Below the pieces are notes generated by a model. The model saw only the letters and a program-made list of their open reading frames with translations. It was not told where the DNA came from and did no database searches. Made by a program: the position numbers and the translations under genes. Below, piece after piece: positions 2,551 through 59,200 of a DNA stretch of 64,000 nt (positions are counted from its first letter, which is position 1; every line of letters starts with the position of its first letter). Source of the DNA: a phage; assembly GCA_036930585.1 (NCBI GenBank), contig GCA_036930585.1_3066.1. The stretch is one strand, 5' to 3'.

Positions 2551-3114
2551 TTATTTACCTAGTTTACTTATTATAGCTTCTGCAGCAGCTTTTAGCTTAG
2601 ATGCAGTGTTAATACGATTTTTAATTTCAGTATACGCATCGCCAAGAACATCAAGGCTATCAGAATAAACACTTACACTATTGCGTTCGCTATTTGAAAT
2701 AGAACCTTTAGTTTTGCGGTCAAAATCGGTGTACACGTCTTGAAGATCGCGGGCTGCCTTCTTTGCATCATCCAATGCATCAAGAGCTTTATTCAAAGCA
2801 TTAACGTATTTTTTAGTGTCGAACATATTCTTAGAAATTTTAACAGGTGCGCGTTCAGGAGTAGCTAACACAGATTTAGGAACCTGAGCGCCAGATGCCA
2901 ATTTCTTAGAAATTTTGAAAAATGCTTTATTGAATTTATTTTCTTGACTCATTGTAAAAGAACTATTATCGATGTTGTACATTTCAATAGCTTTAGCTTT
3001 CCACTTAAGAAAATCGCCGCGGTCTTTTGGGTCCAATTGGAAGAATACTTTAGTAAGATCTGCTTCAGATGGTAATTTTGCTGCTTCGGTTAAAAATTCG
3101 GCATAGGTTTTCAT
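2551..3114 (-). CDS. internal-protein-like head protein with N-terminal capsid targeting sequence (187 aa)
   Basis: N-terminus MKTYAEFLTEA resembles the T4 IP capsid-targeting sequence MKTYQEFIAE with a gp21-type (L/I)xE cleavage site. Confidence 0.6.
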   Translation of the reverse strand: MKTYAEFLTEAAKLPSEADLTKVFFQLDPKDRGDFLKWKAKAIEMYNIDNSSFTMSQENKFNKAFFKISKKLASGAQVPKSVLATPERAPVKISKNMFDTKKYVNALNKALDALDDAKKAARDLQDVYTDFDRKTKGSISNSERNSVSVYSDSLDVLGDAYTEIKNRINTASKLKAAAEAIISKLGK

Positions 3115-3203
3115 TTAAAATCCTTGAAATAATTTATCGGTTGGTTATTAATTATTTATTACTTTGTTACTATCCGTAACAGCGTTATCCGAGTGATTCA
3201 AAC

Positions 3204-4816: not shown

Positions 4817-4903
4817 TGGTGGGGAGTGATGGAGTCGAACCACCCGAGTCGCAATGACAATGGATTTACAGTCCACACCGCTACCTCTACGGGATAACTC
4901 CCC
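4817..4903 (-). tRNA. tRNA-Tyr (anticodon GUA), long variable arm
   Basis: 87 nt; acceptor GGGGAGT/ACTCCCC, anticodon loop CUGUAAA, long variable arm, T-loop TTCGACT, discriminator A, CCA; D-arm pairing irregular. Confidence 0.6.
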
Positions 4904-4916
4904 TTAATTCTTAATT

Positions 4917-4991
4917 TGGTGGCCCTGGGTGGAATTGAACCACCATCTGGCGATTATGAGTCGCTTGCTTGAACCTTCCAGCTACAGGGCC
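4917..4991 (-). tRNA. tRNA with CAU anticodon (Ile2/lysidine-type, or Met)
   Basis: Acceptor GGCCCTG/CAGGGCC, anticodon loop CUCAUAA, discriminator A, CCA; anticodon arm resembles bacterial tRNA-Ile2. Confidence 0.65.
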
Positions 4992-54710: not shown

Positions 54711-54714
54711 CAAT

Positions 54715-54740
54715 GGGGACCTTTCGGTCCCCATATTTTT
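54715..54740. terminator. bidirectional terminator GGGGACC-TTTC-GGTCCCC + T-run
   Basis: Perfect 7-bp stem followed by ATATTTTT; between convergent gene 54 and the alt-region genes. Confidence 0.7.
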
Positions 54741-55029
54741 ATTTACGGAATGAAATGAAAGCAGCAACTGAAGCAACTAAACTGTCTTCAATATAAACTT
54801 CAATTTTTACCGGAGCTTCTGACTCAAATTTACCTGTTACTACACCCTGAAAAATACTTTCAGTCTGTTCTGGCTTTGAAAAATTTTCAGAAGGAAAAAT
54901 TCCAAATTTTTTATCTGTTCCGAAAATTTTGATAAATTCATCATAAACTGCTTCATTAAAAGCGTTATCAGCAGGAATAACGCCTTCAACTACAAGTTCT
55001 TGACCTAAAAAGCGTAAAGAAGATTTCAT
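54739..55029 (-). CDS. hypothetical protein (96 aa), alt.-3-like
   Basis: ORF track; downstream of the alt cluster. Confidence 0.55.
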   Translation of the reverse strand: MKSSLRFLGQELVVEGVIPADNAFNEAVYDEFIKIFGTDKKFGIFPSENFSKPEQTESIFQGVVTGKFESEAPVKIEVYIEDSLVASVAAFISFRK

Positions 55030-55061
55030 TTTGTGTTCCTCATGTTATGTCAGTAAGACTA

Positions 55062-55265
55062 CTATAACACAACACGAGGGACTTGTAAACTACATTTTGA
55101 ACTTTTTAGTACGCGTAATAGGCATGCGTCGATTTTATACTGTTTCATTGTTTGAAGAGCAGTATCAAAAACAGCATTAATGACACCAATTGGATTTCCA
55201 CCCAAGTTTTTAAGCTTAACTAATGATAGTTTCTCATTAACACCTATCATTACGATATGCATCAT
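55062..55265 (-). CDS. Alt N-terminal paralog fragment (67 aa)
   Basis: MMHIVMIGVNEKLSLVKLKNLGGNPIGVINAVFDTALQTMKQYKIDACLLRVLKS parallels Alt residues about 62-128 (MMHIVPFTLTAKGSIAKLKGLGPSPINYINSVFTVAMQTMRQYKIDACMLRILKS). Confidence 0.5.
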   Translation of the reverse strand: MMHIVMIGVNEKLSLVKLKNLGGNPIGVINAVFDTALQTMKQYKIDACLLRVLKSSKCSLQVPRVVL

Positions 55266-55450
55266 TTTGTCGCCTGGTTTAACGTTTTATCTGTATCACC
55301 GCCAGAGGTGTATGTACAAAATCTAAATCCAGGAAGCACGCTTTCTTCGCCGGCTTGAATAGCAAAAATTTGTGGTATTTTATGCTTAGGATTTAAGTTA
55401 ACAACCGGCGCCGAAGCGCCGTCAAATAATTATGTAATAAGTTCCATGAT
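55266..55450 (-). pseudogene. degenerate duplicate of the alt 5' end (premature stop and frameshift)
   Basis: DNA reads ATG GAA CTT ATT ACA TAA versus alt ATG GAA CTA ATT ACA GAA; further homology to alt codons 7-60 continues out of frame. Confidence 0.6.
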
Positions 55451-57499
55451 TTATCCTTGAACGAACTTGTAAGGCATGTTTGCAATATCTATGCAAGACG
55501 CAATAATTCCAAGAGATGATTCTACTTTCTGTTTAACATTTGATGAAACAAATGATGCAAAGTCAACTCTGTCTTCTATATCACCTGTCATTGTAACCAA
55601 TTCACCAGTTTCCATTAAATGGTCTCCGTCATAGATTACCGATTCGGTGAGTTCTTCTGTGGTCATAACTTCAGCTTGAATAAGCTTGTTGTTAGTTCTA
55701 ACTGTTCCATCGTTGTAAGATGCATCGGTTATTTTATTAACTTTGACCATTAATCCACGTGGCAAAATGACTTCCATTTCATTTGAAGGCGCTAAACTTC
55801 CACCGGGTAAAACAACATTAACCTTATCAGCCCCAGTAATAACCCATCCAATTCCAACTAAATTATCGCTAGAATTTACTAGTCCTTCATCAGTTTTATC
55901 AATAGAAACACTTAGACGCTTTTCGTCCGGTAAAACACCCACAGATGAATCAGTCATCCAAGTACCAAAAATATTTGGATATAATGGTGTTGACACAAAG
56001 TTTCTAAAATAAAAAACTCGATTTTTTACCATTGCTTCGTATATTGAAGGTAACATTCGTTGTGAACGATACAAAGTAATACCTTTTGGTAATCGTTCAC
56101 CATTTTTAAAGGCTGAATCTAAATTATCAATGGCTTGTTCTATTTCAGGTGCTGTTAAAATACTTGTACGCTCATCTGGATTATATAATCCCAAAAGAGC
56201 ATTATTCATGTCTACATATCCTGAACCTACATATTCACGAATTCCGCGTTTTTGCGCTGGTGTGTATTTAGATGAATCTTTATTTTCGACTATAGGATGT
56301 AATGACCATCCAGCGGTAAGAGCATATCCACGTAATTCTCTTCGAATAATCTTTGTTTTTATTGCATTCCAAGAATTTTGTACTAACTCATTCGCAGCAT
56401 CTTGATTTAAATGCGAATGCTTGTTAATGTTTCTTTCTAACCAAGCACCTTTATATTTTTCTAAAGTATCATCAACTATAGAAGCAATAGTTTCTAAAGT
56501 TTTTATTGAAGTAATAGATTCTTTTCGTAATCTTTCTAAAGCTTTATTTTTTATTTCTGCATTAACATCAGATTCTTTATCTTCAGGAATTATAGAAGCT
56601 TCTCTGAATGCCATTCCAGCTGTAACACTGCTAAGAGCATTCTCTAGTGCAAATCCTGAAGTAGAAATAACAGTTAATTCATTAGCGTCAGAAATTAAAG
56701 GAGCGTCAGCGGGTTTATTTAATTCTGCTGCTGAAGCCTCAAATTTTTGAAACATCGGCGTTTCAAATCTAGAAGATTCCAATGATTGACTTTGCGCAAT
56801 TGCTCTACGGGAAATTTTAACTTTAACGATTACGGCTTGGTCAGAACGTTTATCATTTTCTTGTGCAATTGATGCTGCAATTGCCTCATTTTTAGTTACT
56901 TGGGCTCCAGTATCTTTATTGATATAAACATCACCGACTTTCGATTCAACTTTAGTAAAGAGCTCGGTACTAATTTCCGGAACTCCTGGAATGTCTTCTA
57001 GTGATACATTTTTGCGATGTATAAGAATATATGCATACTTTTTATCATAATCCCAGAGTTCCTTAAGAAGGACGTATCTGCCACCTGAACGACTACGGAT
57101 AAGTCTATCAGCAATAACTTGAATTTGTCGAGCTTGACCGGCGGTTTTAGACTTAAGAATACGAAGCATGCAGGCATCAATTTTATATTGACGCATTGTT
57201 TGCATTGCAACAGTAAAAACTGAATTGATATAATTAATCGGGCTTGGACCAAGACCTTTTAATTTAGCAATTGAACCTTTAGCAGTTAATGTAAAAGGAA
57301 CAATATGCATCATTTTATCGCCCATCTTTAAATCACGATTAGTATCACCTCCAGATGTATAGGTACATAAACGAAAGCCTGGTTGTTCAATTGCATCATC
57401 AACATGAACTGAAAAAATTTGTGGTATTTTCTTCTTTGGATTTAAGTTTGTAATCGGAAGAGTAGTATCTTCGTCAAATAATTCTGTAATTAGTTCCAT
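55451..57499 (-). CDS. alt: Alt ADP-ribosyltransferase (packaged, injected)
   Basis: 682 aa from the second Met (track ORF is 683 aa beginning MM), matching the recalled T4 Alt length; synteny next to gene 30. Confidence 0.9.
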   Translation of the reverse strand: MELITELFDEDTTLPITNLNPKKKIPQIFSVHVDDAIEQPGFRLCTYTSGGDTNRDLKMGDKMMHIVPFTLTAKGSIAKLKGLGPSPINYINSVFTVAMQTMRQYKIDACMLRILKSKTAGQARQIQVIADRLIRSRSGGRYVLLKELWDYDKKYAYILIHRKNVSLEDIPGVPEISTELFTKVESKVGDVYINKDTGAQVTKNEAIAASIAQENDKRSDQAVIVKVKISRRAIAQSQSLESSRFETPMFQKFEASAAELNKPADAPLISDANELTVISTSGFALENALSSVTAGMAFREASIIPEDKESDVNAEIKNKALERLRKESITSIKTLETIASIVDDTLEKYKGAWLERNINKHSHLNQDAANELVQNSWNAIKTKIIRRELRGYALTAGWSLHPIVENKDSSKYTPAQKRGIREYVGSGYVDMNNALLGLYNPDERTSILTAPEIEQAIDNLDSAFKNGERLPKGITLYRSQRMLPSIYEAMVKNRVFYFRNFVSTPLYPNIFGTWMTDSSVGVLPDEKRLSVSIDKTDEGLVNSSDNLVGIGWVITGADKVNVVLPGGSLAPSNEMEVILPRGLMVKVNKITDASYNDGTVRTNNKLIQAEVMTTEELTESVIYDGDHLMETGELVTMTGDIEDRVDFASFVSSNVKQKVESSLGIIASCIDIANMPYKFVQG

Positions 57500-57522
57500 C
57501 ATATCCTCTCTAGTGTTTATTC

Positions 57523-57535: not shown

Positions 57536-57553
57536 AAAGGCCCGAAGGCCTTT
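57536..57553 (-). terminator. hairpin AAAGGCC-CGAA-GGCCTTT
   Basis: 7-bp stem with tetraloop between orf 57552..57740 and alt. Confidence 0.45.
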
Positions 57554-57740
57554 AATAATCTATTGGTAAGAGAGTACGATATATTTCAAACTTTGGTCCT
57601 TTTTCATAGGCATCAAATGTTTCTGTGAATTTATTATAAGCGTATGCATCTACAAATTCGAGAATGACTTGTGATACAGAAGTAGAAACATCTCCACCTT
57701 CTTTTTGAGCAATGACAATTGTTTCTAAGTAAGCTTTCAT
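57552..57740 (-). CDS. hypothetical small protein (62 aa)
   Basis: ORF track; ATG overlaps the ligase stop (ATGA). Confidence 0.5.
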   Translation of the reverse strand: MKAYLETIVIAQKEGGDVSTSVSQVILEFVDAYAYNKFTETFDAYEKGPKFEIYRTLLPIDY

Positions 57741-59200
57741 AAACCAGTTACCTCATGAAAATCACCAAATACATCTTCGAACGTATTAGCTTTAGTTTTA
57801 TCTTCGCGTAAACGAATCGCAATCGGAAGAAATAATTTAACGTAATCAGTGCGGCCATCAGATTTTAACCAACCGTTGCATTCGCACTCTAGAATTTTTC
57901 CAATATAATAATTTTGGTTTTCCATAATGCGAGTACGGTCAAGTTCATGCGATTTTACACCGGCTTTATCTTTTAAGCCTGAACCAGCATTTACCTTAAT
58001 TTTTCCACACTCTGACTCAAGAATAAATCCACCTGCTTTAGTAGGGTCTTTACGGTGAGGATAAATTCCTACAATTTTTAAATCAACATCAATTACTTCT
58101 TTAAATTTATAGAGATTTTTTGAACGAGCATTTTCCCATAATCCATCGATATTTTTGAGAATAATACCTTCAAGACCTTGGTCAATATACTTTTTATAAA
58201 TTACCTTGGCTTCGTCTAGGTTATTTACTACCTGGTTTTCAATTAAAATTACTTTATCATAGCCTGATGTCATTTGTTCTAGTTTAGAAAAACGTACATC
58301 ATATTTCAAACGAAATGCAGGAAGACCGTATATTTCTACCAACGGTACATAATCCCAGACCTGAAACTTCATGCATTGTGCTTCTTTTTCAGAAATGGTT
58401 CCCTTTAAAGATTTATTGGCGATGCCATTAGATGCAGTACGTGATTCAGCTACTTCGGCGAATTCTTTAGCTTTACTGTTTTCAGGATAAGCATCAAAAA
58501 GAAAATCTAGGCCTTCTGGCTCCTTTTCAACTTGCTCATGGTATACCAATTCGCCATCAATTAACACGCCTTCTGGATGAATCTGGCGGGCTTCAGCGGT
58601 CATTTTGATTAATTCTTCCTTAAGAAGATCTAATCCTAGATATTCATTACCAGCTCGTGATAAAAGACGAACGTCATCTAATTCATCACCTCTGACTTCG
58701 GCAAAGCACCGAGCTCCATCAGCTTTTAACTGGGCAAAGGCTGGAAATTTGATATTCTTATTAATGCCTTTTTCATCATAAGAACTTGCGAGCATTTGAG
58801 GTTGTTCAGGAATTAAACCTGGCCAAACTTTGTTTGCAATAGATACTGAAGCACCGCATTCAAGGTCTCGCATCATCACCCGACGCAAAACTTCAACATC
58901 ATCTTTTTTACCGTCAGTAATATATCCAGTTAATTCCTCAATTGCCGCATTTCCAGTCAATTTCCGAGTAGCTAACGTGAATTCAATGAAGTCAAGCATA
59001 TCGGTAAGAGTCAACATTCCAAAACTCTGGGTAGCAATACCCGGTTTAGGCCATTTCTTGATATAATACTGTAACCCACGAGAATAAGTCAGACGATATA
59101 CTCGTTTAAGCAATTCATTATCTTTATTCTTTTCAAGAATTGCTTGCTTCTGCTTAGTTGAACCAATAGATGCTATTTCGTTCAGAATTTTAAGAATCAT
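57737..59200 (-). CDS. 30: ATP-dependent DNA ligase (gene 30)
   Basis: 487 aa; ligase motif I KADGAR; MILKILNEIASIGSTKQKQAILEKNKDNELLKRVYRLTY matches recalled T4 ligase. Confidence 0.95.
   Translation of the reverse strand: MILKILNEIASIGSTKQKQAILEKNKDNELLKRVYRLTYSRGLQYYIKKWPKPGIATQSFGMLTLTDMLDFIEFTLATRKLTGNAAIEELTGYITDGKKDDVEVLRRVMMRDLECGASVSIANKVWPGLIPEQPQMLASSYDEKGINKNIKFPAFAQLKADGARCFAEVRGDELDDVRLLSRAGNEYLGLDLLKEELIKMTAEARQIHPEGVLIDGELVYHEQVEKEPEGLDFLFDAYPENSKAKEFAEVAESRTASNGIANKSLKGTISEKEAQCMKFQVWDYVPLVEIYGLPAFRLKYDVRFSKLEQMTSGYDKVILIENQVVNNLDEAKVIYKKYIDQGLEGIILKNIDGLWENARSKNLYKFKEVIDVDLKIVGIYPHRKDPTKAGGFILESECGKIKVNAGSGLKDKAGVKSHELDRTRIMENQNYYIGKILECECNGWLKSDGRTDYVKLFLPIAIRLREDKTKANTFEDVFGDFHEVTGL

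Follow-up and report, generated by a model that had tools for sequence, protein, structure and literature searches.

A probable decaying pseudogene left by a second alt gene between alt and alt.-3 in a T4-like phage

The Alt protein of phage T4 is a mono-ADP-ribosyltransferase that is packaged in the capsid, injected, and modifies the host RNA polymerase. We analysed a 64,000-nucleotide stretch of phage DNA (NCBI GenBank assembly GCA_036930585.1, contig GCA_036930585.1_3066.1), referred to below as the window, in which an intact alt gene is followed by a short segment that resembles the beginning of alt. A segment of this kind raises two questions, namely how it came to lie beside the intact gene and whether it still specifies a product. 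The source phage is a Tequatrovirus (T4-like), and the locus comprises the following features:

57737-59200, minus strand: the DNA ligase gene.
57552-57740, minus strand: alt.1 (62 aa), with a match to Pfam PF24647 'Phage blade protein' (E 2e-29).
55451-57499, minus strand: intact alt, for the Alt ADP-ribosyltransferase, recognized from the ORF list, Pfam and the T4 annotation.
55062-55447, minus strand: the alt.-1/alt.-2 segment, between the alt stop codon and alt.-3.
54739-55029, minus strand: alt.-3 (DUF5498, 96 aa), the intact downstream neighbour, recognized from Pfam PF17602 (E 1e-64) and the T4 annotation.

Counted from the T4-equivalent start, Alt has 682 aa, to which the ORF finder adds one further ATG at 57502, and its Pfam ADPrib_exo_Tox domain occupies residues 375-615 (E 2e-32). 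Genes gp54 and gp48 lie on the plus strand and converge on the minus-strand genes of the alt region. The order ligase, alt.1, alt, remnant, alt.-3, gp54 is that of T4, as is the strand, and in the direction of transcription the segment lies downstream of alt, not upstream as the title of the initial annotation had it. Between alt.-3 and gene 54 the window also carries a bidirectional terminator hairpin (54713-54734) with a 9-bp stem and, on the minus strand, a GAAA loop; its counterpart in T4 has a shorter stem and the reverse complement as its loop (TTTC), as if flipped.

The similarity of the segment to the 5' end of alt stands well above chance. In a blastn comparison within the window the two share 70.9% identity over 203 nt (96 bits, E 6e-22), whereas the best of 100 shuffles reached just 23.8 bits. 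At the protein level, translation of two frames in a near-identical relative gives a combined match to Alt residues 1-118 at 61-62% identity (E 1e-36). The homology covers alt codons 1-116, which is less than the approximately 130 codons originally estimated. The segment opens with ATGGAACTTATTACATAA, its ATG lying at 55447-55445, and the early observation that this start (ATG GAA CTT ATT ACA TAA) meets a stop at codon 6 (TAA, 55432-55430) was correct, as were those of a frameshift, which we could place as a 1-nt deletion in the A-run at 55285-55288, and of an open 67-aa ORF at 55062-55265.

The initial annotation had pointed to the alt.-1/alt.-2 region of T4 for comparison, and this is precisely the counterpart of the segment. 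T4 alt.-1 (NP_049810, 61 aa) and alt.-2 (NP_049809) occupy the same place between alt and alt.-3, and they have the same junction and the same frameshift. Over 821 nt the window and T4 are 98% identical; the differing sites number 8 in alt.-1 (within 186 nt, and including a change of GAA to TAA), 0 in alt.-2, whose ORF is identical at 204/204 nt, and 10 in alt.-3. They differ in that alt.-1 of T4 is an open 61-aa ORF whose stop overlaps the start of alt.-2, whereas alt.-1 of the window is closed by the TAA at codon 6. The same 821-nt query covering the segment retrieved 503 phage records at 90% identity or higher, nearly all of them from Tequatrovirus. By its sequence, then, the segment is the known alt.-1/alt.-2 region of T4, and as such an ordinary feature. 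UniProt lists T4 alt.-2 as an 'Uncharacterized 7.4 kDa protein in Gp54-alt intergenic region', and the T4 RefSeq note traces alt.-1 and alt.-2 jointly to an old duplicate of the beginning of alt that acquired a stop codon and a new start. Our search of the literature on alt.-1/alt.-2 found only Nolan 2006, where they are listed as paralogous duplications of alt (PMC1524935), and a search for alt pseudogenes in Tequatrovirus found nothing relevant.

Comparison with relatives allowed the segment to be dissected into the following elements:

55262-55447, minus strand: the alt.-1 remnant, comprising codons 1 to about 53 of a former paralogue followed by frameshifted codons up to a TGA.
55430-55432, minus strand: the TAA nonsense codon at codon 6, where T4 and every intact paralogue have GAA.
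55407-55420, minus strand: a GGCGC-UUCG-GCGCC tetraloop hairpin, seen in the centroid fold and derived from paralogue codons 10-14.
55285-55288, minus strand: the frameshift site, where A5 became A4, from the alignment against intact paralogues.
55062-55265, minus strand: the alt.-2 ORF (67 aa), whose residues 1-55 correspond to paralogue residues 62-116 and whose residues 56-67 are out-of-frame read-through.
55101-55109, minus strand: the deletion junction, with the sole remaining copy of the 9-bp repeat CTAAAAAGT, from breakpoint comparison.
55090-55092, minus strand: the TAG that once ended the full-length paralogue and that alt.-2 now reads out of frame, from comparison of 3' ends in 7 phages (ZN18, T2, Shfl2, G4507, phiD1, Ac3 and MLP2).
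55061-55090, minus strand: an early-type promoter for alt.-3 (GTTTACA, 17 nt, TATAGT), from a promoter scan.

All that remains of alt.-1 as a reading frame in the window is a 5-codon ORF (MELIT). The shift in the A-run creates the TGA stop of alt.-1 (55262-55264), which overlaps the ATG of alt.-2, and this overlap is still present in the window. The 'new start' of alt.-2 is a Met-Met pair found at residues 63-64 of both Alt and the paralogue. Its tail, SKCSLQVPRVVL, is an out-of-frame reading of the end of the paralogue, its old stop and the alt.-3 promoter, and is to all appearance an accident of the deletion. The parallel originally drawn between the 67-aa ORF and Alt therefore holds for the first 55 residues (Alt 63-117), while the last 12 are other sequence. 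A local scan gave no Pfam match for the 67-aa ORF, and the ADP-ribosyltransferase (ART) domain, with its Arg, Ser-Thr and Glu-x-Glu motifs, is not in the remnant, which consequently cannot be an enzyme. Precomputed matches to PF26846 (Tevenvirinae_ADPRT N-terminal) exist for 5 representatives of Alt.-2-like clusters and for a 129-aa chimeric ORF described below; the local scan, possibly run without that model, returned none for the 67-aa ORF.

The provenance of these pieces became apparent from a search of IMG/VR with the 67-aa protein, which recovered loci where the same sequence begins an intact ORF of 685 aa. In one such locus, that of phage ZN18 (L005, 2818-4872), the first 348 nt of the ORF match the window copy at 96-98%, and the tail of alt.-2 corresponds to its last 20 nt and what follows them. 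Two stretches of this locus, 2745-3165 and 4856-4965, match the window and overlap there by 9 nt; the window hence corresponds to the long form minus approximately 1.7 kb. The same intact gene occurs in T2 (L027, 2606-4663), Shfl2, G4507, phiD1, Ac3, MLP2 and RB32 (L041, 3321-5378). It contains an ADPrib_exo_Tox domain (E 2e-20) at residues 416-620, within the stretch deleted from the window, and its YR, FVST and E-x-E-VILPRG motifs line up with those of Alt. The two proteins are identical in their first nine residues, MELITELFD, and well conserved over the N-terminal approximately 240, with about 62% identity in the first 130 residues and about 36% in the rest. A small peptide is cut from the N-terminus of gpAlt by gp21 (PMC9958956), and the paralogue, given its identical N-terminus, may be a candidate for gp21 cleavage after MELITE. 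Homology over the full length at these levels of identity implies that the duplication was old and involved the whole gene, while the 96-98% identity between the alt.-1 remnant and the 5' end of the intact paralogues implies that the truncation was recent. In T2, RB32, RB14, RB51, Shfl2, phiD1 and ZN18, among others, the full-length paralogue occupies the same position as the remnant of the window and shares with it the start context, the hairpin and the downstream alt.-3 promoter; the window differs by its frameshift, its nonsense codon and the absence of 1,699 bp, in which the whole ADP-ribosyltransferase domain lies. The N-terminal approximately 240 residues of T4 Alt likewise resemble the parent paralogue of the remnant, the remnant itself lacking the catalytic domain of Alt. 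Other phages offer a likeness of theme, with tandem alt-like duplicates beside alt, some full length and some partial, as in JS98 (altA/altB), 44RR (ORF187c/188c), RB49 (ORF183c) and loci L007-L009; the tandem duplication in 44RR is on record (PMC1524935).

We located the breakpoints by BLAST coordinates and by direct inspection of both ends in eight intact genes (ZN18, an IMG/VR contig, T2, Shfl2, G4507, phiD1, Ac3 and MLP2). In the intact genes the repeat CTAAAAAGT occurs twice, 1,699 bp apart, once at codons 114-116 (LKS) and once 11 nt before the stop, at a 3' end that reads ..ATG TCT AAA AAG TTC AAA ATG TAG. In the remnants it occurs once (25/25 sampled), and the stretch missing is 1,699 bp. 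Since the two copies of the repeat lie in different phases, the deletion shifts the frame and the ORF reads through the old TAG; it then passes into the alt.-3 early promoter. With an intact counterpart in relatives and a repeat reduced from two copies to one, the remnant of the window has the make-up of a pseudogene formed by deletion between short direct repeats.

The two forms are unevenly distributed. A tblastn search with the ZN18 paralogue found the full-length form, at 90% protein identity or higher, in about 402 records. Of the records matched by a 69-nt query that straddles the junction, 90 cover both sides, and 379 others match it only from the repeat onward, that is, with the 3' end of the intact gene. 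The remnant is thus carried by roughly one in five Tequatrovirus records, T4 included, with one junction common to all. Queried with 41 nt around codon 6, 45 records show the TAA form and 449 the GAA form, which places the window in the half of remnant carriers where alt.-1 is also closed. Scans of IMG/VR and metagenome contigs with the junction sequence added only one new locus, and the population sample comprised 25 remnant and 8 intact sequences, plus data on protein clusters.

We consider it very probable that the segment is a decaying pseudogene that goes back to a second alt paralogue, of full length (685 aa), which lies between alt and alt.-3 in most Tequatrovirus phages. In the ancestry of T4 and the window, a deletion of 1,699 bp between the two copies of CTAAAAAGT would have taken out codons 117 to about 680, the entire catalytic domain among them, and slippage by one base in the A-run would have split what was left into alt.-1 and alt.-2, the latter starting at the pre-existing Met-Met. 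In the sub-lineage of the window, codon 6 would have become TAA, such that ribosomes starting after alt would make MELIT only, and alt.-2 would be deprived of the TGA/ATG translational coupling present in T4. The 67-aa ORF would stay open by accident, its last 12 codons being a wrong-frame reading of the end of the paralogue, its stop codon and the alt.-3 promoter. Probably, no functional protein is made from the segment. The view of the segment as a decaying duplicate, one of the two offered originally, is borne out by its lesions, by relaxed constraint and by the comparison with relatives; what was duplicated was the whole gene rather than the 5' region of alt, and the copy was shortened by the later internal deletion of 1,699 bp.

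The pattern of substitution was examined over the first 348 nt in an alignment of 25 remnants with 8 intact genes. Among the variants found in intact genes only, 19 are synonymous and 0 nonsynonymous; those found in remnants only comprise 4 synonymous and 12 nonsynonymous changes plus the nonsense change (Fisher p = 2e-6). Constraint on the remnant is relaxed. Further, independent lesions have struck alt.-2 in individual phages: shortening of a T-run from T5 to T4 leaves a 39-aa ORF in CE1, 235Ecol030PP and PD112, a 7-nt duplication leaves one of 18 aa in HY03, 9 nt are deleted in F1, and the loss of one A from the junction repeat gives F25 a new 74-aa tail. The record of fPS-2 labels its own ORF a 'putative pseudogene'. 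The main Alt.-2 protein cluster holds 55 distinct sequences, among them point variants, frameshifted forms and forms that have lost their start. Most common by a wide margin is the canonical 67-aa sequence, present on 178 contigs, a count probably inflated by laboratory T4.

The decay is uneven along the segment. Substitutions private to the 25 remnants number 15 in the alt.-1 part and 1 in the alt.-2 part (binomial p = 7e-4), and singletons number 11 in 185 nt of alt.-1 against 0 in 162 nt of alt.-2. Nucleotide diversity is 0.012 and 0.011 on the two sides of the junction, compared with 0.022-0.023 in alt.-1 and alt.-3. This dip is consistent with hitch-hiking on a single recent deletion that was recombined into different backgrounds, an explanation that does not fully account for the lack of singletons in alt.-2. 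In the larger protein collection, on the other hand, amino-acid variants are many, and weak constraint on alt.-2 is improbable in our estimate.

We also considered two translational arrangements that might link the halves. We rejected a programmed frameshift joining alt.-1 to alt.-2, given that SG1, fPS-2 and EC128 share the deletion and the TAA but lack the shift in the A-run. A further ground for rejecting it, and likewise a coupled pair, is that TAA ends the upstream ORF in 45 records, the window among them. The start site after alt has a strong Shine-Dalgarno sequence, AAGGA at 55454-55458, ahead of the ATG at 55447, while the upstream signal of alt.-2 itself is weak (AGG).

Three further accounts of the segment deserve attention, besides one that the junction contradicts. 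According to the first, which we regard as possible though doubtful, the segment was kept for a non-coding role, as a spacer or leader with signals for its neighbours, namely the alt.-3 early promoter and a UUCG hairpin that could stabilize or end the alt transcript. Its attraction lies in the conservation of these elements. The promoter-like site at 55061-55090 is conserved and has been annotated at the same place in phage Lutter; in our scan it shows 10/12 matches with a TG extension, and the TAG stop of alt.-2 falls inside its -10 hexamer. In T4, alt.-3 is early in both RNA and protein (PMC9697503). The hairpin, 28 nt into the former paralogue ORF, is invariant in 33/33 aligned sequences, intact and remnant, and encodes GASAP in the intact genes; alt has a weaker GAAGA/TCTTC stem at the equivalent place. 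Yet both elements pre-exist in the intact paralogues, directly after whose stop the promoter sequence lies, and a role for them leaves the persistence of the approximately 300 nt in between unexplained. As a terminator of alt the hairpin was rejected, since it has no U-tract, was not flagged by the terminator scan and stands in surroundings that fold no better than shuffled sequence (z = -0.98). The promoter, moreover, is already part of the pseudogene explanation, being the only element of the segment that, as far as its sequence tells, is likely to be functional.

According to the second account, alt.-2 is a functional small protein of 67 aa, a fragment of the Alt N-terminal region under selection that might, for instance, compete for a prohead-core or host partner. 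We hold this to be unlikely, despite an ORF that is open and 100% identical to that of T4, the few recent substitutions as compared with alt.-1, the canonical sequence on those 178 contigs, and the in-frame nature of the 9-nt lesion in F1. A time-resolved omics study of T4 detected RNA of both alt.-1 and alt.-2 and assigned it to the 'middle' class, whereas the Alt.-1 and Alt.-2 proteins are given as 'NA', i.e. undetected (PMC9697503, Table S2). The same proteomics did detect Alt.-3 and many other proteins of 60-70 aa (PMC9697503), although non-detection in one proteomics study is weak evidence in the case of a 7.4-kDa protein. The architecture of the ORF also speaks against a selected product: its C-terminal 12 residues come from reading through a frame-shifted stop codon and a promoter, and the remainder, equivalent to residues 62-116, is only a fragment of a conserved N-terminal region of about 240 residues. 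In several independent lineages it has been cut to 39 or 18 aa or has lost its start, and in the window the upstream nonsense codon ends the coupling, leaving alt.-2 with its weak Shine-Dalgarno sequence. The suggestion in the initial annotation that the ORF might be a small protein derived from the N-terminal region of Alt thus finds no support in the read-through tail, the independent lesions or the T4 proteomics.

A particular form of this idea, in which the phages produce the Alt.-2 peptide and have recruited it as a small modulator, for example by competing for a factor that targets Alt to the prohead core, would explain why alt.-2 is uniform among remnant-bearing phages while alt.-1 decays, and seems to us very unlikely all the same.

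The last account, a partial tandem duplication of the first approximately 130 codons of alt with the long form of RB32-type phages arising by later insertion, follows the T4 GenBank note and the RB32 record, which names the long gene alt.-2 (2,058 nt) and labels it 'apparent insertion in alt.-2', but it is exceedingly improbable and already contradicted by the junction, because one copy of CTAAAAAGT in the short form against a flanking pair in the long form is the signature of a deletion, so that the direction of change is opposite to the RB32 label, because the long form is a complete ART-domain ORF under purifying selection (19:0) in about 80% of Tequatrovirus records, because other genera have two full-length tandem alt genes (L007-L009, JS98 'altb' and 44RR), and because an insertion would have to restore a whole enzyme in frame.

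The main alt gene has a history of its own. In the genus it occurs as two divergent alleles, of 2,049 nt and 2,094 nt (compared in the window, L004, L005 and L027), which are nearly identical over the first approximately 250 residues and only about 63% identical over the remainder. The remnant adjoins either allele, which points to mosaic recombination. In the records of phages Pu-Krd-SF5 (L016), G2540-3 (L034) and HY03 (L037), the CDS annotated up to the alt stop spans only 885, 327 or 645 nt, respectively; the main alt may be interrupted in these phages, or the short CDSs may be assembly errors.

A different rearrangement was seen in four Logan assemblies of the related runs SRR16894866, SRR16894928, SRR16894778 and SRR16894792. 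These contain a 129-aa ORF that joins Alt residues 1-67 to Alt.-2 residues 6-67 (L045, 3001-3390; also L046, L047 and L048). The gene order here is ligase, alt.1, chimera, alt.-3, gp54, with the whole alt gene lost by recombination at a block around AAAATGATGCATAT that is shared between the 5' end of alt and the remnant.

The segment has been annotated in T4 for more than 20 years as a duplicated piece of alt, and by itself it matters little. The refinement offered here is modest, namely that the remnant would go back to a second alt gene of full length, shortened here by a deletion and kept by most relatives. It does clarify the polarity of the change, in that T4 would have lost most of its second alt by a repeat-mediated deletion, and the RB32-type phages would have gained no insertion. 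T4 would in this respect be atypical, since a second Alt-like enzyme, predicted to be an ADP-ribosyltransferase, has been kept in apparently working form by about 80% of Tequatrovirus records, among them T2. Finally, as seen in the public read sets, the leftover repeat can itself mediate the loss of the real alt by homologous recombination.
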